From Ewingella americana (lineage in GTDB: Bacteria; Pseudomonadota; Gammaproteobacteria; Enterobacterales; Enterobacteriaceae), in contig NZ_RCZD01000016.1 in assembly GCF_006438725.1 (NCBI RefSeq), positions 4,719-28,718 on the forward strand: a stretch of 24,000 nucleotides of DNA, given 5' to 3'. A program made the position numbers and the translations under genes. Shown piece by piece: positions 180-24,000 of the stretch (positions are counted from its first letter, which is position 1; each line of letters opens with the position of its first letter). The notes beneath the pieces were generated by a model. It was given only the letters and a program-made list of their open reading frames with translations, made no database searches and had not been told where the DNA came from.

Positions 180-404
180 TCAGTCCCGGAAGGCGTGGTC
201 AAGTTCGTTAACCTGTTTATAGATTTCCAGCATCTGCGCGCTGAGCTGGTTGATCACCTGACCGGCAAGGCGCTGCGTTAACTCTTCGCTGCCCCAGAAG
301 TATTTTTTCTCGAACGCCCGGAACTGCTCGCGAAGTTCAAACGTTGCGTTTGCCAGCGCGGCGACGTCCACCCGCAGGTCGATATTGTCTGAATAGTTGC
401 TCAT
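180..404 (-). CDS. hypothetical small protein (74 aa), translationally coupled to the methyltransferase
   Basis: The ATG at 402-404 (MSNYSDNIDL...) shares an ATGA overlap (tcat, 401-404) with the methylase stop. The 167-aa ORF in the track is an upstream extension into the methylase gene and is not credible. No family recognised. Confidence 0.5.
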   Translation of the reverse strand: MSNYSDNIDLRVDVAALANATFELREQFRAFEKKYFWGSEELTQRLAGQVINQLSAQMLEIYKQVNELDHAFRD

Positions 405-1087
405 GCCATGCTCCGGTGTTGCTGTGATGAAGCTGAGGCCGTTGCCACAGGGCGCACGCGCTGAAATTCGGCCAGACGGCGCACACCCGCCGCGTGATAC
501 TCCTCCATCAGCTCGATGCCAATCCAGCGGCGCCCGCACTGCGCGGCCGCCACGCAGGTAGATCCACTTCCACCAAACGGGTCGAGCACAATATCGCCCG
601 GCTGCGTGAAGCATTCGATCAGCGGCCGCAGGGAAGACACCGGCTTTTCGGTCGGATGGTGCCGGTTCCCGGAATACGCCCACGGCATCACGTCCGGCAG
701 CGGGTTTTCAGGCAGCGGCGGGCGGCCTTTGGCCAGCACGTAGGCACATTCATGCCGGTAGCCCACAAACGCCGATTTTGACGAATAGGCTTTGGTGAAC
801 ACGAGGTGCCCGACAACCCGGAACCCGGCGGCTTTCCACGCGGCCATAAACTGGTCGATGCGGTTCCAGCCGTAAAAACTGACCGCCAGACTGTCATTTT
901 TAAGCACCCGGAACATCTCGCGGCTGACCGGCAACAGCCAGTCACCCTGCTTATCGTTGGCAATGGAACGCCCGGAGCGGTCGGTAAACCCCACAAGGTA
1001 AGGCGGATCCGTCAGGATAAAATCGACGGAACGGGACGGAAAAGTTGACATAACCTGCTGACAATCACCCAACACAAAACGGGACAT
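401..1087 (-). CDS. orphan DNA methyltransferase, N6-adenine/N4-cytosine type (beta-class motif order)
   Basis: Track ORF 401-1213 trimmed to the ATG at 1085-1087 (MSRFVLGDC...). ILTDPPY (motif IV) precedes LDPFGGSGSTCVAA (motif I). No restriction partner is visible nearby. Confidence 0.85.
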   Translation of the reverse strand: MSRFVLGDCQQVMSTFPSRSVDFILTDPPYLVGFTDRSGRSIANDKQGDWLLPVSREMFRVLKNDSLAVSFYGWNRIDQFMAAWKAAGFRVVGHLVFTKAYSSKSAFVGYRHECAYVLAKGRPPLPENPLPDVMPWAYSGNRHHPTEKPVSSLRPLIECFTQPGDIVLDPFGGSGSTCVAAAQCGRRWIGIELMEEYHAAGVRRLAEFQRVRPVATASASSQQHRSMA

Positions 1088-1625
1088 AGCGTCACTCCAC
1101 ATACAGAGAACCGGAACCGGCCGGCGCCGTGCCCCCACGACAGTCGGGCACAAAGCGGAGCTGGAAGGGCTGACGCGGAAGCCGCAGCGCCGACAGGAAC
1201 GGGCTGAATGCACCGTGACTGGCGGTGACCGGGTGAGCAGGCAGGTTTACGCACCCTTACAGGCGAAGCGGCCCGGCTACAGTGCGGGCACGGGGTTGGC
1301 GCTAACATGAGGGAACATAAGGGATGACGCAGGAGGTGTTGAAACGCAGCGGCACCGCGAGGTGCCATGAATGTGGAGCAACGCGACACCCTTGGGCGGC
1401 AGGAGCCTCGCACAGGGTCGTCGCAGAACGGCCAGGCGACTTATCCCCCGCGAATACCGGAGTTACTCAGTGAAACTGTGGATAACCGAATGCGGTTTGA
1501 AAATGTGGCGGGAGTCTGCGACGACCGGCGCGGTATCAGGAATGAGTGGGAGCAGGACACCGGCCAGGCCGGCCCCCTGAGATCAGACGATTAGTGAGGA
1601 TGATATTCTGTTCGTAGCCGGCAGA

Positions 1626-4074: not shown

Positions 4075-4497
4075 ATGCTACACATCACTCCCGTCGCCAT
4101 TGACCCGGTGAAGGTTTCGTTGCCTCTGTTTATTGAACGATGCCCCGCCGGATTTCCCAGCCCTTGTGCCGACTACGCCGACGCGGAACTGGATCTGAAC
4201 GATTACTGTATAAAGAAAAAATCCTCCACGTTCTTCATCCGGGCGATTGGAAACTCTATGAACGATATCGGCTTGCACAGCGGTGACCTTATGGTCGTGG
4301 ATAAGTCAGAAGAACCGCATCACGGGGATATTGTGATCGCGGAGATTGACGGCGAGTTTACGGTAAAACGCCTTCTACTGACGCCCCGCCCTGCGCTCCA
4401 GGCTATGAATCCGGACTATCCGACACTCTATCCGGAGAACCTGCAAATTTTTGGGGTTGTTATGGCTTTTGTGCACAAAACCCGTGGAGGTGAATGA
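4075..4497 (+). CDS. umuD: UmuD/MucA-family SOS mutagenesis protein (S24 LexA-like peptidase)
   Basis: 140 aa with an AGGAG RBS. Cleavage-site region CPAGFPSP, catalytic Ser in GNSMND, Lys in EFTVKRL. The stop TGA overlaps the umuC ATG (TGATG). Confidence 0.9.
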   Translation: MLHITPVAIDPVKVSLPLFIERCPAGFPSPCADYADAELDLNDYCIKKKSSTFFIRAIGNSMNDIGLHSGDLMVVDKSEEPHHGDIVIAEIDGEFTVKRLLLTPRPALQAMNPDYPTLYPENLQIFGVVMAFVHKTRGGE

Positions 4498-5770
4498 TGT
4501 TTGCCCTGGCGGATGTGAATTCTTTTATGCAAGCTGCGAAGCGGTTCTTAACCCAACACTTCGCGGCAAGCCATTGATAATATTGAGCAATAATGATGGG
4601 TGCTGTGTGGCGCGATCCGCAGCAGCCAAAAAATTAGGCATAAAAATGGGCATGCCGTGGTTTCAGATCCAGCAGATGTCATTCCCTGAAAAGGTGTACG
4701 CATTCTCCAGCAATTATTCCTTATACCACTCATTTTCCCAACGAGTCATGAGTCATATTGAGGAACTTTCGCCACGCGTGGAACAATACAGCGTGGACGA
4801 AATGTTTATTGATATCAGTAACATCGATAACTGCATGGATTTTGAAGCCTTTGGCCACCAGTTGCGCGCGCACGTTCTGAAGGGGACTGGCCTGACAATC
4901 GGTGTAGGGATGGGACCTGGCAAAGTTTTGGCAAAAGCAGCTCAGTGGGCCTCGAAGGAATGGCCACAATTTAAGGGAGTGCTGGCTCTCACGCCTGGTA
5001 ATCCCCGGCGTACAGAAAAATTGTTATCGTTGATGCCCGTTCAGGAAGTCTGGGGCTGCGGAAGCCGGATTTCGAAAAAGCTGAACCTGATGGGGATTCA
5101 AACCGCCCTGCAGCTCGCTCGCGCGAATCCCACTTTTATCAGGAAGAATTTTAGCGTTGTCCTGGAAAGGATATGCAGGGAACTGAACGGCGAAAGCTGT
5201 ATCAGCCTGGAGGAAGCCCCTCCCGCCAAACAGCAAATTGTCTGTAGCCGCTCTTTCGGCGAGAGGATCACAACCTATGAGGCCATGCGTCAGGCCGTCT
5301 GCCAGTATGCCGAACGGGCAGCAGAAAAGCTCAGAGGTGAAAATCAGTACTGCCGGCATATTTCCGTTTTCGTGAAAACATCACCTTTCGCAGTCAACGA
5401 AATCTATTACAGCAACGTGGCCACTGAAAAACTCACCACACCTACACGAGACACCCGCGATATTATAGCGGCCGCAATGAAGGCGCTCGATCGCACCTGG
5501 GACCATGGCCGCCGGTACGCAAAGGCCGGAATAATGCTCAATGATTTTACACCAAACAGTGTGTCACAGTTGGATTTGTTTGATGAAGTTCAGCCCCGCC
5601 CTGCCAGTGACTCGTTGATGCACGTTCTCGATGGCATCAATAATTCTGGCCTGGGAAAGGTATGGTTTGCGGGGCGAGGGATTGCGCCCGAATGGCAGAT
5701 GAAACGTGACATGCTCTCCCCTTCTTACACAACAAGATGGTCGGATTTACCGGTTGCCTCGATTCGTTGA
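4497..5770 (+). pseudogene. umuC: UmuC/MucB-family Y-family DNA polymerase V subunit, 1-nt frameshift at codon 10
   Basis: The ATG at 4497 gives MFALADVNSF (E. coli UmuC starts MFALCDVNAF). That frame then runs into a stop at 4575-4577. The rest of the homology (FYASCEAV..LSNNDGC..VWGCGSRISKKL..) continues in the frame of track ORF 4451-5770. The T-run 4523-4526 has four Ts where five are needed. Confidence 0.8.
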
Positions 5771-13050: not shown

Positions 13051-14145
13051 TTATAAATCTCCGTACAGCGAGCGTAAAGCCTCCACGGCGCTGGCCAGGG
13101 CGCCCGTATCCACCCGCTCCGTCAGCTCCCGGACCAGTTCGCCGAACGCCTCGGCTGGCACAAACACCCGCAGCGCATCAAAACCCAGGATCGCGTCCTG
13201 ATGCGCAGTCCCCGGCAGGGCCAGGCTGATATGGGCACCTTCGCTGTAGCGGCGCACCGCCTCCGGCGTGGTGCGATAGACGTTCAGCAGGCGGTAAAGT
13301 TCCGCGAACTCCCTCCAGCCGAACGGCATAACAAAGTTGCTGCCGGTCAGAACCAGATACAGGCGCGGCACCTCATCACCAACGGCGGCGGGCAAGTCAC
13401 CGCGCTGGCCGTCGACCCGGATGTCGAACCGCAGGTCACCGGCGGAGAAGGTGTCATTCATTTCCCGCACCGACGGGCGCACCTCCCGGATAAAGGTTTC
13501 GCGCTGCCCGAAGGTCCACTGCCGGGTGCGCATCACCAGCGGAAAGATCTGCTGCAGGCGCGCCGGCGTGAAGACGCGGGCCAGCACGTCGTCAGGATAA
13601 TCATTCAGCGAAAAGCAGCCAGACGCCAGCGGCCGCATCAGATATTCCGCATAGCCGGGATCGACGGCGCGGCTCATTTCACGCATAAAGCGCGCGGCCT
13701 CTTCCTGCCAGTTCTCGGTCGCAAACTCAAAGGTGCGCTTAATGTAGTGGCTGTCCACCGGCAGCCCGTGCTCTGCCTGCCAGACCAGCAGCTCAAAGCT
13801 GATGTTCAGCAGCGTTTCCAATACTGGCCACCTGACAAATTCCTTTGCGCTGGCGTCGCGGTAGGCCTGATGGGCAAGATCCGTCATAAAGCGCAGCTCG
13901 GCGCGGCGCAGCGCCTGGCGGCCAAAGGTTTCTCCGAGGACAACTTTGCGGTACAGCTGCTGCACCGCCTCGTCCGGTCGGGTAACCAGCTGTAGCCAGT
14001 CGTCATCCGGCGCGCTGGTTTGCAGGGAGACGTCAAGAAAACGCTCGGCCAGGGCGTTGACCGAGGTCTTTTCCGTGACAGCACGGTTTTTCAGCGATTC
14101 GATGAGTTTTTTAGGAAAGCGGAGTGTTAACTGGCTGAGCATCAT
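13051..14145 (-). CDS. RHH-domain protein with a large uncharacterised C-terminal region (364 aa)
   Basis: The N-terminus LTLRFPKKLIESLKNRAVTEKTSVNALAERFL fits a CopG/Arc-type ribbon-helix-helix. The stop is 1 nt from the KAP ATG. No motif recognised in the remaining ~300 aa. Confidence 0.7.
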   Translation of the reverse strand: MMLSQLTLRFPKKLIESLKNRAVTEKTSVNALAERFLDVSLQTSAPDDDWLQLVTRPDEAVQQLYRKVVLGETFGRQALRRAELRFMTDLAHQAYRDASAKEFVRWPVLETLLNISFELLVWQAEHGLPVDSHYIKRTFEFATENWQEEAARFMREMSRAVDPGYAEYLMRPLASGCFSLNDYPDDVLARVFTPARLQQIFPLVMRTRQWTFGQRETFIREVRPSVREMNDTFSAGDLRFDIRVDGQRGDLPAAVGDEVPRLYLVLTGSNFVMPFGWREFAELYRLLNVYRTTPEAVRRYSEGAHISLALPGTAHQDAILGFDALRVFVPAEAFGELVRELTERVDTGALASAVEALRSLYGDL

Positions 14146-16946: not shown

Positions 16947-17334
16947 ATGAAAATGACTTTGTTGGAACTTTTAAAGATTACTGGCCCATGCCCAAGCTCA
17001 CAACTAGTTGAAGAACTAGTTGCAAGAAATGGTCTCACCAAAGTAGCAGCACGCCAGCAAATTTCTCGGGCGGTAAGGGCCGGTGGAATACTGAGTCTTG
17101 ATAAGGTGCTTCCTAAAAATGAGCGGTTTATTTATTTGCGTAAACACTATGGGTCGGAAGACTATTGGTCTAATTTAGCAGAGTCACTCCAAGCTTCAGG
17201 CTCGGCACATGGATTAGCTTTAGGGGCTACCATCGCTCGAGGTGGCATTATTCCGGTCGGCCACTTTCCTAGTGCGAGTGGCTCCCCCGTAGCCATGAAG
17301 GGAAGGTTGTCTCATTTTTCTGTGTTAGAGAGTT
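16947..17334 (+). pseudogene. wHTH-like hypothetical gene, 3' end replaced by the IS end
   Basis: The N-terminus LLELLKITGPCPSSQLVEELVARNGLTKVAARQQISRAVRAGGI looks like a winged helix. The reading frame runs straight into the IS inverted repeat at 17335, and its last 19 codons are IS sequence. Confidence 0.45.
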
Positions 17335-17982
17335 TGATCTTACCCAGCAATAGTGGACACGCGACTAAGGGCGAAAGCCGCCCGGAAGTTTAGCCCGGTC
17401 AGCTACCGTGAACATAGTCTGCCGGTATCGAATAATCTGTTGGAGCAGGACTTCAGCGCTGACGGCCCGAACCAGAAGTGGGCGGGTGACATCACATATC
17501 TGCGCACGGACGAAGGCTGGCTGTACCTGGCGGTGGTCATCGATCTGTGGTCACGTTCCGTCATTGGCTGGTCGATGTCGTCGCGCATGACAGCCCAACT
17601 GGCCTGCGATGCGCTGCAAATGGCGCTCTGGCGGCGTAAACGCCCGAAAAATGTCATCGTTCACACGGAACGTGGTGGGCAGTACTGTTCATCGGACTAT
17701 CAGACCTTGCTGAAACGCCATAATCTACGTGGAAGCATGAGCGCAAAAGGTTGTTGTTATGACAATGCCTGCGTGGAAAGCTTCTTTCACTCGCTGAAAG
17801 TGGAATGTATCCACGGAGAGCGCTTTAGCAGCCGTGAAATGATGCGGATGACGGTGTTTAACTATATTGAGTGCGATTACAATCGCTGGCGTCGCCACAG
17901 TGCCTGCGGCGGTCTCAGCCCGGAACAATTTGAAAACTAGAACCTCGCTTAGAGCCGTGTCCACATTACGTGGGTAAGATCA
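17335..17982 (+). mobile_element. internally deleted IS3-family element retaining both terminal inverted repeats
   Basis: IRL TGATCTTACCCAGCAATAGTGGACACG (17335-17361) matches the reverse complement of 17956-17982 at 22/27 positions, with TG...CA termini. At 648 bp it is too short for an IS3-family IS. There is no orfA and only the 3' part of orfB. Confidence 0.8.
17353..17940 (+). pseudogene. IS3-family transposase OrfB fragment (DDE domain, N-terminally truncated)
   Basis: [49 protein letters not shown]. Recognisable homology starts near 17400. Glu sits where the second catalytic Asp is expected. Confidence 0.8.
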
Positions 17983-18127: not shown

Positions 18128-18153
18128 ATAAAAACCGCCTATTTGGCGGTTTG
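18128..18153 (-). terminator. rho-independent terminator of the six-gene operon
   Basis: Minus strand reads AAACCGCC-AAATA-GGCGGTTT followed by TTATTATAT, about 85 nt below the ATP-grasp stop. Confidence 0.6.
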
Positions 18154-18237: not shown

Positions 18238-19497
18238 TCACTTCATGCTTATGAGCACACCCGCTTTTTCTAAATCGGTAACACGCTGTGCGTCGGCAAT
18301 CAGCATCTTCCTATCAGAATTGAAAAGGACTACACGTCCATAAGAAGTGACTAAGTCGGTTGTTTTTTCGAGATAGTCTCCGACTTCATATTTGCACACT
18401 GTAAAACCATAGCTATTCAGGGATGAGCATTGCGATTCAATGTTCACCGATTTCAGAGTGCCTGATTGAGGTGAACTGAGAAAGTACTCTAAAGCGTAAC
18501 TCTTCAGTAGGGGCTTAGTCTTTGTTCTATCTGCAAACTCGCTTGGCGAAATGCGGGCGATCAGGCTTAAATCAATGAGTGAGTGAGAATTACACTCTTC
18601 TACAAGACGAGGGCCAAGTCCGCCGTGCATTCGAGCACCTGTTTCAACCAGAACAGGGCCTGTAACAGACATTATGATTTCGTTATGGGAAGTACCGTTG
18701 CGAACACCTAGTGAGGTAAGAACTGTTTTAACGTAGTCGACAAGCGTCGTGTGTTCATCGACTGGTTCGATAATCATCTGACGATAAATAGGGACACCGT
18801 TAATTTCCTGCTTTACGTACCTGAAGATATTCACAACGTAATGTTCACCATCACTGCTGACAGCATCTACAACATACTCTGTACCCTCGATTTTTTGCTC
18901 AATCAGGAGTTCTTCATTTCTGCTTCCTGAATAGTCAAATGTATTAATTAGTTCACAGAAAGCTCGCTCAACCTCTGATGTGCTCTTACAGAATAAAACA
19001 CCTTCAGTTCCGAATGAACGGACCGGTTTAATTACGTATTCTCTGAATGGATTATCCGTGCACCATTTCAAAATCTCTTGAAGATTACCCGATTTATAAT
19101 GTGGAATGTGGCGAATACCATCCTGTTTTAGCTGGTACTGCATGAGATATTTATCACGCCGTGCCTGGCTAAGTTCAAATATATTAGGCAGTAACTCCCA
19201 CTCTTTACAGAGTCTGTCAAAGACGTTAACACCTGGCTCTGAACCACAGACAATGAAATCAGGTGCATGACCGATTTCAGACTCGATCTGTTGTAAGGTT
19301 TCCGTATGAGACTGATAGTAAAAAACCTTCGAATATTCATCATGCTTGAAGGTGGCCATTACGGCAGACGGTAGGCGGTCATTTGTAATAAGTGCCATAA
19401 CATCGTAGCCAAAGAGAGATTTTATTCTATTGGAAAAAGCAGCACCGCTGGAGAAGGGGTCAACGACCAAAACACATTTATTATTTCTCATTTTCAT
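18238..19497 (-). CDS. ATP-grasp family ligase (carboxylate-amine / L-amino-acid-ligase-like)
   Basis: 419 aa. ATP-grasp-type blocks EYVIKPVRSFGTEGV, LIEQKIEGTEYVVD and SHNEIIMSVTGPVLVETGARMHGG. Confidence 0.8.
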   Translation of the reverse strand: MKMRNNKCVLVVDPFSSGAAFSNRIKSLFGYDVMALITNDRLPSAVMATFKHDEYSKVFYYQSHTETLQQIESEIGHAPDFIVCGSEPGVNVFDRLCKEWELLPNIFELSQARRDKYLMQYQLKQDGIRHIPHYKSGNLQEILKWCTDNPFREYVIKPVRSFGTEGVLFCKSTSEVERAFCELINTFDYSGSRNEELLIEQKIEGTEYVVDAVSSDGEHYVVNIFRYVKQEINGVPIYRQMIIEPVDEHTTLVDYVKTVLTSLGVRNGTSHNEIIMSVTGPVLVETGARMHGGLGPRLVEECNSHSLIDLSLIARISPSEFADRTKTKPLLKSYALEYFLSSPQSGTLKSVNIESQCSSLNSYGFTVCKYEVGDYLEKTTDLVTSYGRVVLFNSDRKMLIADAQRVTDLEKAGVLISMK

Positions 19498-19514
19498 TCC
19501 TTAAGTTAATGAAT

Positions 19515-20543
19515 TCAGATTATTTCAATGACTACGTTTTTATCAGGGAATGAGCAGCACGCAAGATGAATATTTTCTGCTTTATCTTTTGCAGACAGAC
19601 AGAAGTCAGGCTCACTTCGAACACTGCCGCTTTCTAATCTAAACTTGCAACTTCCGCAGATGCCAGCGCGGCAAATATTTCTGATAGAAATATCGTGCTG
19701 TATCAGGTTATCAAGGACCGTTTTTTCGGTATCGACTGATATTTCACGTTTCTGATTTATAACCGTCAGGCTTCCTGATGAGTTAACGAGACTTGTGGTT
19801 CCGGTCGCTGCCTTTTGAATGGAGCTGAATGCCTCGACAGCAACGGCAGAATGCGGAAAACGCTTTTGGAAAGCTGACACCATTGTCTCTGCAAACCCCG
19901 CACTGCCACATATAATAGCCATTTCAGGGGAGGGGGTTATTTCGGCTGACGTCATATCTATTCTACCGGGTCTGATAAAATCAGTATTTTTATCGAGTAC
20001 GGCTCGAGTCACATTAATGCGCAGATTAAACCAGTCGCATCGTGAATGGAGGTCAAGCAATTCATTCAAGTATGGGACGGAACCTAAGTCGTTACAACTC
20101 AACATCAGCATGACTATTTTTCCGGGTGCACTGTATCCATAATATCTGAAGCATTCGCGTATAAGTGCAAGAGGCAGGGTTATTCCGATTCCGCCTGCTA
20201 CAAGGAGAACATTATTCTTTCCTCTAATCGAGTCAAAAGTTATTTCTCCTCCTCGCGCCGATACTTCAATTTCTTTTCTATTAACAAACAGCTGACTGAT
20301 AACAGACGAAGCACTTTCTTCGCCTTTATCCTCGATGATAAAATCGTAATACCCCCCCTTTCCCACGGATACCAGTGTATAACATCGTTGGAGAGGAAAA
20401 TCATTTTCATCCCTAAAGTGAAAACTGAAATATTCACCCGGTGCGCAAGGTATGTTATTAAATTTACTGCTGTTCGTAGGTTTAAGGCGAAACATTCTTA
20501 TCCTTGTTGTTAACAAGGATGATTCATCACAAATAAGTTTCAT
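19515..20543 (-). CDS. FNR-family flavin reductase fused to a plant-type 2Fe-2S ferredoxin domain
   Basis: 342 aa. RCYTLVS (RxYS/T FAD site), LLVAGGIGITLP (NAD(P)H site), C-terminal CRAGICGSC...LACC (C-x4-C-x2-C...C). Confidence 0.85.
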   Translation of the reverse strand: MKLICDESSLLTTRIRMFRLKPTNSSKFNNIPCAPGEYFSFHFRDENDFPLQRCYTLVSVGKGGYYDFIIEDKGEESASSVISQLFVNRKEIEVSARGGEITFDSIRGKNNVLLVAGGIGITLPLALIRECFRYYGYSAPGKIVMLMLSCNDLGSVPYLNELLDLHSRCDWFNLRINVTRAVLDKNTDFIRPGRIDMTSAEITPSPEMAIICGSAGFAETMVSAFQKRFPHSAVAVEAFSSIQKAATGTTSLVNSSGSLTVINQKREISVDTEKTVLDNLIQHDISIRNICRAGICGSCKFRLESGSVRSEPDFCLSAKDKAENIHLACCSFPDKNVVIEII

Positions 20544-20558
20544 TTTATAAGTTTGCCT

Positions 20559-21464
20559 TTACAGACCAATCCTAGAAATAACCTTTTCCGCTGAATCGAG
20601 ATAAATACTTATCTCATTACAACGCTGCGTTTCTGATACTATTTCCTTTGCATAGGGCATACCAACAAGGCTGAAAATATTTTCCCACGCACCTAATTCA
20701 TTATCCGCAAAGAGATCGACCGTTTTAAGCATGATATCCCTAAGGTATTTTCTTTCGCTCAAGCTGAGGTCACGAACAATGTCGTAGGCTACATAACTGA
20801 ATACGCTTGAATGACTCCATTCATCCTCGGCATGAATACGTGTTACTTCATGACATACCTTTTGAATACTTCTGTCTTCTGCCATCACTTTTAGATAGTC
20901 AGTTATCAAAGTCTCGCTGGCACAGGCGACTGCAAAGCGGGTAAGTCGCCTCTGCCAATCGGCGCTGCAGCCCGCAAGTATCTGCCTGCGCCATGCGATG
21001 AGATTGAAATTCGTATAGTTTAACGGTTTAAGTCCACGCCGGTCGTAGATGTAATTAGACGCCATGACTGACATTCGCGTATGCAACGCTTCATCCAGTA
21101 GTGCTTCTGACATGACGTCCTGGAGTTCGACTCTATTGGGCGAATTGAGCGGTGGGCATTTTATTATGTCTTCACATGCGGGCGTGACAATATCGCATTC
21201 GATATAGATAGTTTTGAGATTATATATACCCCAGGCATAAGACAGACAACGATCCTTAACCTCTTCAGGTGCTTCTTGCCAAGCATCGTGCTGCCTGAAT
21301 GGAAGCAGAGACTCGCTGAAATCCTTTTTAGATGCGTCAAATTCAAGTTCGGAATATTCAGGGTGTCTGTTATTAACCGCTGCTCGGTTCTTCCAGAGTG
21401 CTGACAATTTTGTCAGCATGAGGGCGACATTTTCACTGTCGGGTACTACAAAATTAGCGGACAT
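20559..21464 (-). CDS. AurF-like diiron (ferritin-like) oxygenase, putative N-oxygenase
   Basis: 301 aa. Candidate metal ligands E89, E125-x2-H128, E184 and H211-x3-E215-x2-H218. Their spacing matches the AurF ligand set as I recall it. Confidence 0.7.
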   Translation of the reverse strand: MSANFVVPDSENVALMLTKLSALWKNRAAVNNRHPEYSELEFDASKKDFSESLLPFRQHDAWQEAPEEVKDRCLSYAWGIYNLKTIYIECDIVTPACEDIIKCPPLNSPNRVELQDVMSEALLDEALHTRMSVMASNYIYDRRGLKPLNYTNFNLIAWRRQILAGCSADWQRRLTRFAVACASETLITDYLKVMAEDRSIQKVCHEVTRIHAEDEWSHSSVFSYVAYDIVRDLSLSERKYLRDIMLKTVDLFADNELGAWENIFSLVGMPYAKEIVSETQRCNEISIYLDSAEKVISRIGL

Positions 21465-21494
21465 AAATTACTCCTTTAACTTTTGACTGCGAAA

Positions 21495-22679
21495 TTAATG
21501 TTCATTTTTGACACGAATTAAACTCATGAAAATTGCTCCGGCAAAAGCAAGTCCCGCAGAGATGACCAGCGTATTTTCCCAATGCCCACCATCAAGTAAA
21601 TCCCCGTAGATCATGGCTGAAAGCGCACTCCCAAGATAAAAAGAAAGCTGCCTTATGCTGGTAGACAATAGCGTTCTATCTTTAGAAAAACCGGTAATTG
21701 CCAGCGTATCCAAAAGTGGCATCAGGCAGTAGTTGAGAAGAAGTCTTATGAAATATAGAGTAATAAAAATTGCCGCAGGAACATGCAATGATTGGAAGAA
21801 TAAGCATGCAGCTGTCAGTACACCAGCAACGAGCACGGTAGGTTTCAATGAGAAGCGTTTCACTAATAGAGGGGCAAATATTGCTCCTACAATGCTGACA
21901 ATCTTATCCCCACCCATAACCAGGGAGATCTCGCTGACATTCATGCTATAGGCTAGGTTGAATACTATATTAACGAAGCGAAAAATGAGTGTTATCGAAG
22001 CTCCGAGAAGCGAAGCCGCTATAAAAAGGACAATGAAATTGCCCCATTCCATATTCTTCATGTCAGAAAGCTGGCGGTCATCACTCCCGGGCTCAATAAC
22101 ACCCTGAATAGATTTAACACGGAAATATATCATCAGCAGGGAGAAGATGAATGATGCAGCGAGAATCCCTTGATAATTTCTTAGCGGTTCGGCCTGAGAA
22201 AAATGTGTAATAAGGCTGACCGCGAAAGAACCCGTCATTGCCGCTCCCAGGTAGGAGACAAAGAAGCAACTGAACAGTGTCGTCCTGCTTTTGGCATCTA
22301 TGTTCGATCCCATAAGGGAATTCCCAAGCGACAGTTGCGCGATCATTCCGGAAAGAATGAGTCCTAATGTAATGGCACTCGCCCATACTGTCGTTAGTAC
22401 TGGCAGTAGAATAAAGGGTAGTGAATATATGAATGCAAAAATAAGAAGCAACTTTTTCTGAGACATTCGCCTACTGGCAAAAATCAGTGGGATCACCGCG
22501 GCGGCCATCATCATCATGGCTACAGCATAAATGTGCCCGGTTGCCGTTTTATCTATGCCTCGAGCCTCTAGATAAAAGTTGTAAACGGCATCAAACATGC
22601 CATTGCTCAATCCCATTAGGAATGTGGCGATTAGAAAACTGCGCGCGGATGCTCCAAAATTTTTTACTTCACAAAACAT
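21495..22679 (-). CDS. MFS-type transporter
   Basis: 394 aa, about 12 hydrophobic segments, two-fold 6+6 organisation with a central charged loop (PGSDDRQLSDMKNMEW). Confidence 0.8.
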   Translation of the reverse strand: MFCEVKNFGASARSFLIATFLMGLSNGMFDAVYNFYLEARGIDKTATGHIYAVAMMMMAAAVIPLIFASRRMSQKKLLLIFAFIYSLPFILLPVLTTVWASAITLGLILSGMIAQLSLGNSLMGSNIDAKSRTTLFSCFFVSYLGAAMTGSFAVSLITHFSQAEPLRNYQGILAASFIFSLLMIYFRVKSIQGVIEPGSDDRQLSDMKNMEWGNFIVLFIAASLLGASITLIFRFVNIVFNLAYSMNVSEISLVMGGDKIVSIVGAIFAPLLVKRFSLKPTVLVAGVLTAACLFFQSLHVPAAIFITLYFIRLLLNYCLMPLLDTLAITGFSKDRTLLSTSIRQLSFYLGSALSAMIYGDLLDGGHWENTLVISAGLAFAGAIFMSLIRVKNEH

Positions 22680-22681
22680 CT

Positions 22682-23242
22682 TCAGTCCTTTGTTATGGCG
22701 TTGATTAACGGAATACCTGTAAATGCCTGAAATAGACGCTCACCTTCAAGCCATTCACCATAGCCAGCAGCGGTGTGAAGATGGCCAGCTGCGTGGAAGA
22801 TACGAGTTTCGCAACCCCATGTATCTGCGAGCGAACGGGCACGCGCCTCGCTGAGATGTTCATCATTGTCGCTATAAATAAGCAGTGAGCTAAATCCGAG
22901 ATGTTCTAAAGGCAATGGGCGCTGCAGCCTAATAGGTACAATCGCCGTTTCAGCATCTACGTCAGCCGGAGCTACAAGGATAAGAGCCCTTACTCTGCTA
23001 CATGAATGACTCGCGGCCCACTGTGTAATAGTTACGGAGCCGCAACTATGGCCGAGCAGCACTATATCGCCGTGGGTCTCTTCTATAACCTGACTGAGTC
23101 TGTCTACCCAAACAGGTGAGGGGGTATTCCAGTCCTCCTGCTGAACACGTACAACATTGCTATATTTTCTTTCCATGAATGACTGCCAGTGCTCCGGGCC
23201 TGAGTTCGTATAACCTGGGACAAGGATGTATATGGTATTCAT
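22682..23242 (-). CDS. alpha/beta serine hydrolase, YdeN/RBBP9-like (Ser_hydrolase family)
   Basis: 186 aa. N-terminal ILVPGYTNSGPEHWQ and nucleophile elbow LLGHSCG are typical of this family. The start overlaps the NAT stop (ATGA). Confidence 0.7.
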   Translation of the reverse strand: MNTIYILVPGYTNSGPEHWQSFMERKYSNVVRVQQEDWNTPSPVWVDRLSQVIEETHGDIVLLGHSCGSVTITQWAASHSCSRVRALILVAPADVDAETAIVPIRLQRPLPLEHLGFSSLLIYSDNDEHLSEARARSLADTWGCETRIFHAAGHLHTAAGYGEWLEGERLFQAFTGIPLINAITKD

Positions 23243-24000
23243 TGAATTCCCTCTTCAGGAATATTCTCAGGTGAAAGGGCGATACCAAATCTCTCGGAAA
23301 GAAGCTGAGAAAGCGCCTGTTTATCTGCAATTTCAACGGATAAGGAAGAGAATCCATTAACTTCTGTGAAAGTATTGTTGCGTATACTTATCCTACCGTT
23401 TTCTGTCGGAAGGCTCGCAACCTGGTTCGTGTTAAGGAGACTTTGTGGAGAATGAAGGGTGTAGAAATAAGCCATATTGATATCAGGTTGAAAAGTTGCT
23501 GTGTCATGAAAGGAATAAATATCTTCCCAGACAGCATTAGGTTTACTGTTTTCTTTTACGGAGACTACCCAGCCATGTACAGAGTTTCTGGTGACTTTGG
23601 AAGAAAGGAAAATATGCTCATGGATATAACCATCAATAAGCAGCAAAGGGGCACGCGGGCCTTTTGCACCAAAACCCACATCAAAAATCCACCGTTCCTC
23701 ATTGATAGAGACTATAGATAACTGATGGGTTGCTGGCGTCATAAAAGGAATAAGCACCTTAGCCAATCGCGAACAGTGCACATAGCCTAAATGATCAAAA
23801 AGCTTTTCAAGCAACACCATAAACTCGAAACAGATCCCCCCTCTATTACTAAATATTACCTTATGGGCAATGTCATCATATGACAACTCGCCAGCTCCGT
23901 TATCCTTCATTGTAAAGTTCTCAAACGGAACTGAATAGAAATGAGCTTTGTGCAGAGCAACAAGGTAGTGTATATCTTTGGCGTATTTTTCCTTAAAATT
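23239..24000 (-). CDS. arylamine N-acetyltransferase (NAT) family, 5' end beyond the window
   Basis: Catalytic Cys in NRGGICFEF, His in PATHQLS, Asp in IFDVGFG. The frame stays open upstream of the track's Met (23910) to nt 24000 and encodes ...LVALHKAHFYSVPFENFT, the conserved NAT N-terminal PFEN motif. The gene is therefore partial. Confidence 0.8.
   Translation of the reverse strand, partial: NFKEKYAKDIHYLVALHKAHFYSVPFENFTMKDNGAGELSYDDIAHKVIFSNRGGICFEFMVLLEKLFDHLGYVHCSRLAKVLIPFMTPATHQLSIVSINEERWIFDVGFGAKGPRAPLLLIDGYIHEHIFLSSKVTRNSVHGWVVSVKENSKPNAVWEDIYSFHDTATFQPDINMAYFYTLHSPQSLLNTNQVASLPTENGRISIRNNTFTEVNGFSSLSVEIADKQALSQLLSERFGIALSPENIPEEGIQ

Follow-up and report, generated by a model that had tools for sequence, protein, structure and literature searches.

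PNP-2 (short for "Pantoea Natural Product 2") is a cluster of six genes spanning 5,784 bp, which, as recounted in the survey of Kirk & Stavrinides 2024 (PMC11350110), was defined genetically in Pantoea agglomerans TX10 via an antibiotic-loss screen and was brought to expression in E. coli (Robinson et al. 2020). According to the same account, its product acts as an antibiotic on a broad spectrum of bacteria, both Gram-negative and Gram-positive. The cluster has a GC content of 41.89% compared with 54.63% for its host, its gene pnp2E is predicted to encode a ferredoxin reductase, which Proteus has in truncated form, and clusters of other genera were accepted as PNP-2 at 66−74% nucleotide identity (PMC11350110). 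Here we analyze a block of six minus-strand genes at positions 18238−24000 of a 24,000-nucleotide (nt) stretch of an Ewingella americana plasmid contig (hereafter, the window; NZ_RCZD01000016.1, positions 4,719−28,718). Judging from gene content and protein homology, the block is very probably a diverged copy of the PNP-2 antibiotic cluster, which forms a low-GC cargo island on the Ewingella plasmid, beside a remnant of an IS3-family element.

Comparison with the Pantoea PNP-2 cluster

A megablast search of PLSDB (72,556 plasmids) with the block matched only three megaplasmids of Pantoea agglomerans, at 73.9% nucleotide identity over 58% of the block, and the E. coli genomes searched with it gave no match. 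The same six genes are present on the P. agglomerans plasmid CP034475.1, with order and orientation unchanged, and code, from 5′ to 3′, for a NAT-fold enzyme, a serine hydrolase, an MFS transporter, a diiron oxygenase, a reductase and an ATP-grasp ligase. Over their full lengths, the corresponding proteins are 59% (NAT), 73% (hydrolase), 85% (MFS), 86% (oxygenase), 61% (reductase) and 73% (ATP-grasp) identical. The copy on CP034475.1 was identified as PNP-2 in the survey, at 99.36% identity to MN329808.1, the reference from TX10, with a coverage of 100% (PMC11350110), so that our comparison with this copy links the block to the reference. By our own measurement, the Pantoea locus is 5,785 bp long, has 41.97% GC and has the reductase as its fifth gene. 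Thus, the block shares with PNP-2 of TX10 the six genes, their order and orientation, the approximate length, a GC content below that of the host replicon and protein homology, but differs from it in having only ~74% nucleotide identity over little more than half of its length, a value within the range seen for other genera in the survey. The assignment to PNP-2 follows from the colinearity and homology with CP034475.1, the match in length and GC, the position of the reductase as gene five and the truncated reductase of Proteus.

In a scan of species-representative genomes, the complete six-gene arrangement was found in Rouxiella silvae, Pantoea sp. C2G6, Pectobacterium brasiliense and Proteus penneri. 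The 4-kb flanks on either side of these loci have nothing in common between genera, being shared only by the two Pantoea loci, and no extra conserved gene, upstream or downstream, is common between genera within these flanks. Given these differences, the conserved unit consists of exactly six genes, and no further pathway genes are expected past nt 24000. When the six genes were compared with their Pantoea and Rouxiella orthologues, nonsynonymous differences (pN) amounted to 0.08−0.26 per site, whereas synonymous differences (pS) were saturated at 0.72−0.87; pN and pS were used as such, since this saturation made Ka/Ks mostly impossible to compute. This pattern indicates purifying selection on each of the six genes. 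Recurrence of the gene order in four other genera, between flanks that are not homologous, together with low pN against saturated pS, places the six-gene block far beyond chance.

Two of these comparisons concern Proteus. In P. penneri (L005 10968−11195), the reductase is represented only by its C-terminal [2Fe−2S] ferredoxin domain, which aligns to residues 267−342; the survey calls the retained part of the truncated Proteus reductase the 'first portion' (PMC11350110), unlike the C-terminal part found here. In Proteus columbae (L014 9233−10627), matches are limited to residues 148−393 of the MFS protein and residues 1−209 of the oxygenase, and this cluster appears to be a remnant.

The first-pass annotation of the block had proposed a pathway making, or detoxifying, a small molecule and had not recognized the gene combination as a described one. 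The combination has in fact already been published as the PNP-2 cluster (Robinson et al. 2020, as recounted in Kirk & Stavrinides 2024, PMC11350110), so that no new kind of system is discovered with the block. A biosynthetic role, by contrast, is borne out by the homology to PNP-2, given that the survey traces the latter to an antibiotic-loss screen and to expression in E. coli. By analogy, the Ewingella operon probably makes an antibiotic, and the N-oxygenated and N-acetylated amine or amino-acid conjugate suggested in the first-pass annotation is a reasonable candidate for its product.

Several points weigh against equating the block, and especially its product, with PNP-2. The per-gene knockout data and the chemical information on PNP-2 are second-hand and do not come from Robinson et al. 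2020 itself. No PNP-2 structure was found in the literature searched, so that each chemical step has to be inferred, and the structure of the product appears to be unsolved in the searchable literature. AurF-like enzymes, to which the oxygenase belongs, are not confined to arylamines: LitN, an AurF-like enzyme making a hydroxamate siderophore, acts on a non-aryl nitrogen, and this may leave the substrate class wide. Expression of the operon can only be presumed, its promoter and the NAT 5′ end being outside the window. Finally, the product could differ, as identity to the Pantoea proteins is only ~60% for NAT and reductase. Indeed, the far greater divergence of NAT (59%) and reductase (61%) than of oxygenase (86%) and MFS (85%) might be taken to mean that the homologous cluster makes another congener, or has another role, than PNP-2 of TX10. 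The compound could be, for example, an iron-binding N-hydroxy-N-acetyl (hydroxamate) one, since first N-hydroxylating and then acetylating follows the logic of hydroxamates, with LitN as an AurF-like precedent. We consider this improbable, however: all six genes are full-length, in colinear order and subject to purifying selection, the core of the oxygenase is nearly identical across genera, and typical siderophore receptor or uptake genes are not adjacent.

Layout, boundaries and integrity of the block

Recomputation of open reading frames (ORFs) confirmed six intact genes on the minus strand at the coordinates claimed earlier (Table 1), and the intergenic gaps, counted from the ATP-grasp end to the NAT end, are again 17, 15, 30, 2 and −4 nt, the last one reflecting the 4-nt overlap between the start of the hydrolase gene and the stop of the NAT gene. 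No frameshift or premature stop was detected in the 5.7 kb of the cluster. Of the NAT gene, the 5′ end is beyond the window. From 23910 to 24000 its reading frame is open, and its alignment to the 262-residue Pantoea NAT begins at residue 14 of the latter, so that the ATG at 23910 is internal and only ~10 codons plus the start, along with the promoter, are missing. Hence, the earlier statement that the block runs past nt 24000 holds for the NAT 5′ end and the promoter, but not for further genes, which the flanks differing between genera make unlikely to follow a unit of exactly six.

Table 1. Features of the window (coordinates are window positions)
Feature	Position	Strand	Supporting match or remark
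NAT-fold enzyme, operon gene 1 (pnp2A by position)	23239..24000 (ORF 23239−23910+)	−	Pfam Acetyltransf_2, 1.2e−35
Serine hydrolase, YdeN/RBBP9 family, gene 2	22682..23242	−	Pfam Ser_hydrolase, 9.5e−47
MFS transporter, gene 3	21495..22679	−	Pfam MFS_1, 3.8e−19
AurF/CmlI-like ferritin-fold diiron oxygenase, gene 4	20559..21464	−	Pfam AurF, 6.3e−47
Reductase, FNR-like flavin/NAD(P)H domain plus fused C-terminal plant-type [2Fe−2S] ferredoxin, gene 5 (pnp2E)	19515..20543	−	Pfam Fer2, 4.4e−13, plus NAD_binding_6
ATP-grasp carboxylate-amine ligase, L-amino-acid-ligase type, gene 6 (last)	18238..19497	−	Pfam ATP-grasp_4, 8.5e−15
Rho-independent terminator of the operon	18132..18152	−	86 nt 3′ of the ATP-grasp stop codon
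IS3-family transposase fragment, 5′-truncated	17353..17940	+	rve, rve_2 and rve_3 in a 195-aa ORF
148-aa ORF	16947..17393	+	no Pfam or PADLOC match
364-aa protein, after the KAP NTPase	13051..14145	−	no confident family
KAP-family P-loop NTPase, 746 aa	10809..13049	−	PADLOC PifA model, E = 1.9e−286
umuD/umuC	4075..5770	+
Type II-like N6/N4 DNA methyltransferase	401..1213	−	PADLOC MTase_II, 5.4e−116

At its 3′ end the operon is closed by a hairpin which reads, on the minus strand from 18152 to 18132, AAACCGCC-AAATA-GGCGGTTT followed by a T-run. Its 8-bp stem contains five G-C pairs and the folding energy is −12.7 kcal/mol (z = −4.72), with none of 200 shuffled sequences folding equally well, in keeping with the clear terminator reported previously. 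The transposase remnant noted to the left of the block is likewise real and of IS3 type. It marks the left boundary of the block and is context lying outside the pathway. The 3′ end of a 148-aa ORF overlaps the start of this fragment, which suggests that a gene was disrupted by insertion of the element or by a deletion. The AT-richness of the block was correctly perceived insofar as its GC content is 43.2% compared with 50.2% in the remainder of the window, but it is not distinctive, because GC in the replication and partition region (5.5−10 kb) goes down to 38−43%, as low as in the cluster.

The IS3 remnant abutting the 3′ end of the cluster and the GC mosaic of the plasmid raise the question of whether the block could be silent or decaying cargo, a passenger delivered by the element and unexpressed in its host. 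Pantoea antibiotic clusters are conditionally expressed, and remnant copies do exist elsewhere, such as the one in P. columbae. Yet the uninterrupted 5.7 kb, the intact catalytic motifs described below and the retention of the terminator make such decay unlikely.

Enzymes and proposed pathway

The family labels assigned earlier to the six proteins agree with Pfam and NCBIfam, although by the NCBIfam cut-offs the enzymes are no equivalogs of AurF, NhoA or DdaF. The NAT-fold protein scores 123.9 bits against the Pfam cut-off of 22.8 and contains the motifs of the Cys-His-Asp triad (GGICFE, ATHQL and FDVGFG), but reaches only 87.6 bits with NhoA (N-hydroxyarylamine O-acetyltransferase, PRK15047), for which the cut-off is 493. 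The serine hydrolase has a GHSCG nucleophile elbow, and its exact sequence is annotated by NCBI as RBBP9/YdeN family hydrolase of E. americana. The MFS protein is presumed to be an exporter and self-protection pump. The ATP-grasp protein narrowly exceeds the cut-off of NCBIfam PRK07206 (304 vs 302 bits, 1.3e−90), and its best solved structure is an 'L-amino acid ligase' (30vh, 2.2e−45, residues 7−417). DdaF and the L-amino acid ligases of bacilysin, rhizocticin and tabtoxin types share its full-length architecture, with DdaF aligning over residues 3−410. The protein is related to DdaF, but its score of 190.2 bits is far below the DdaF equivalog cut-off of 840, and the partner enzymes of the two ligases are entirely different.

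The oxygenase scores 160.5 bits with Pfam AurF (cut-off 29.6), and its best matches among solved structures are 5hyg (2e−34), which was deposited as 'Uncharacterized protein' and which we take to be CmlI, and AurF itself (3chh, 5e−21). In an alignment of 15 sequences including AurF and 5hyg, the metal ligands E89, E125, H128, E184, H211, E215 and H218 are invariant, reproducing the E, ExxH, E, HxxxExxH set of AurF/CmlI-type enzymes. The block oxygenase thus has in common with AurF/CmlI the fold family, all seven diiron ligands and AurF Tyr93. However, identity to AurF and 5hyg is limited to 25−28% (25% to AurF), and with the NCBIfam AurF model (NF045603, 4-aminobenzoate N-oxygenase) the protein scores 92.5 bits vs a cut-off of 620, so that it belongs to a separate, tightly conserved subfamily. 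One further difference is Lys84, which is invariant in 13 of the 13 subfamily members and occupies the position of AurF Arg96, whereas 5hyg has Asn there. Arg96 of AurF binds the carboxylate of 4-aminobenzoate, and Lys84 is possibly a determinant of a carboxylate-bearing substrate.

The most consistent companion of the oxygenase is the reductase. Its cofactor motifs for flavin, NAD and the Cys4 cluster (RCYT, GGIGIT and CRAGICGSC...C) are all present, and the protein weakly matches the NCBIfam models of GbcB, BenC, PaaE and MmoC, which are reductases of multicomponent oxygenases. In 12 of 13 related loci scanned, as well as in the Pantoea PNP-2 locus, the oxygenase gene has a reductase gene on its 3′ side, either next to it or one gene away, the sole exception being the truncated P. 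columbae remnant. From this pairing, the FNR-[2Fe−2S] protein is predicted to be the dedicated reductase of the diiron oxygenase. To our knowledge, the aur and cml clusters have no such dedicated reductase gene next to the oxygenase. The block further differs from these in containing no arylamine-precursor genes.

The pairing extends to Pseudomonas, where all eight loci (L006−L013) combine a reductase with an oxygenase 58−62% identical to that of the block and contain no NAT, ligase, hydrolase or MFS genes. In the P. syringae group, the neighbours encode a class II aldolase, a DHDPS-like protein, TauE and an HTH-cupin regulator, and in the other arrangement a class I amidotransferase/peptidase C26-like protein, a MOSC/YiiM-like protein and a MocR regulator. 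The Pseudomonas pair appears to represent an uncharacterized two-component oxygenase module. The MOSC/YiiM family reduces N-hydroxylated compounds, and its members next to some Pseudomonas orthologues, together with Lys84, weakly hint at N-oxygenation of an acid.

The occurrence of such pairs outside ligase-containing clusters, beside MOSC/YiiM-like and amidotransferase-like genes, would also suit a detoxification or catabolic operon, in which oxygenase−reductase, NAT and hydrolase modify an imported arylamine or hydroxylamine xenobiotic and the MFS protein serves as an importer or efflux pump. Moreover, NAT and serine hydrolases are classic xenobiotic-metabolizing families, and the resemblance of the reductase to BenC, PaaE and GbcB is a resemblance to catabolic systems. 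Nevertheless, an ATP-grasp amide ligase has no obvious catabolic role, and in no genus do regulator or ring-cleavage genes stand beside the block. Since, in addition, the survey reports the Pantoea orthologue as a determinant of antibiotic production expressed in E. coli (PMC11350110), the 'detoxifying' alternative offered in the first-pass annotation is very improbable.

The similarity to P. syringae oxygenases raised the suspicion of a link to the mangotoxin mbo operon of that species (PMC3355146, PMC13185094). Like the block, mbo has six genes, including a diiron oxidase with a dedicated NADH/flavin/[2Fe−2S] reductase and ATP-grasp ligases that build a peptide, and its product is a small peptide antimetabolite. 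The link was excluded, because MboA is a heme-oxygenase-like diiron enzyme desaturating a side chain to an alkyne, in contrast to the AurF-fold enzyme of the block, and because the Pseudomonas homologues of the latter occur in contexts other than mbo, the respective loci holding only the oxygenase−reductase pair near aldolase, DHDPS-like, TauE, amidotransferase-like or MOSC genes. In addition, mbo includes two ligases and an arginine deiminase and has neither NAT nor serine hydrolase, whereas the block has a single ligase and no amidinotransferase-like gene.

For the block as a copy of PNP-2, a pathway can be sketched from these families, though its details are tentative and rather unlikely to be correct throughout; a search of the literature for the combination of AurF, ATP-grasp and NAT found nothing. 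In the first step, the FNR-[2Fe−2S] reductase would hand electrons from NAD(P)H to the AurF/CmlI-like oxygenase, which would then N-oxygenate the amine of a small carboxylate-bearing precursor (an amino acid or a 4-aminobenzoate-like compound). In the third step, the NAT-fold enzyme could move an acetyl group from acetyl-CoA onto the amine or hydroxylamine, either building the warhead or masking it for self-protection. The ATP-grasp ligase would couple the modified acid to an amino acid, yielding a small peptide-like antimetabolite; this chemistry is supported by the nearest characterized relatives of the enzyme being L-amino acid ligases and DdaF. The serine hydrolase may strip a protecting acyl group or otherwise mature the product, and the MFS pump would export it.

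Plasmid setting and host range

The plasmid contig is 102,845 bp long, and four proteins of the window match the E. americana entries TPG56770−TPG56773 exactly. The 17 kb of the window outside the block consist of plasmid backbone, namely an orphan methylase, ParM/StbB, UmuDC, ParA, Rep3, a tyrosine recombinase and a KAP NTPase resembling PifA, in line with the earlier description of the block as plasmid-borne. In PLSDB, the only carriers of a close homologue are the three Pantoea megaplasmids, which are ~600 kb in size and non-mobilizable. Thus, whereas known PNP-2 clusters reside on a Pantoea megaplasmid of this kind or on the chromosome, the block lies on a ParM/Rep3-type plasmid (~103-kb contig) in the genus Ewingella, and a plasmid of ~100 kb is a new vehicle for the cluster.

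Some other genes of the backbone deserve mention. The product of the KAP-family NTPase gene matches the model of PifA, the phage-exclusion protein of the F plasmid, and is followed by the 364-aa protein; the region of both genes (10809−14145) has ~60% GC, unlike its neighbours. For the DNA methyltransferase at the left end, no restriction partner is obvious within the window, and the enzyme is probably an orphan plasmid methylase. The window plasmid encodes umuD and umuC, and the PNP-2 cluster of Pantoea lies ~700 nt from a umuC gene (L001 5181−6443); this parallel may be a coincidence or reflect a shared ancestral junction.

It is possible, though doubtful, that the PNP-2 family, with the Ewingella variant among its members, makes a yet unsolved chemotype, a small N-oxygenated, perhaps N-acetoxy or hydroxamate, conjugate of an amino acid or aminobenzoate, by means of an uncharacterized two-component subfamily of AurF-like enzymes always accompanied by its own FNR-[2Fe−2S] reductase. 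Under this proposal, the diverged NAT and reductase would give Ewingella a congener distinct from the Pantoea product, and the ~100-kb plasmid would make the trait mobile among Yersiniaceae.

Ewingella and Rouxiella (locus L002) are absent from the 2024 survey and are therefore additions to the hosts of PNP-2, a cluster for a broad-spectrum antibiotic that has been validated genetically. Furthermore, a small plasmid of ParM/Rep3 type, with the cluster beside an IS remnant, could plausibly have served the horizontal spread that the survey infers. The compact and diverged 5.8-kb operon also offers a convenient second template both for heterologous expression and comparative metabolomics directed at the PNP-2 structure and for characterization of the oxygenase−reductase pair.

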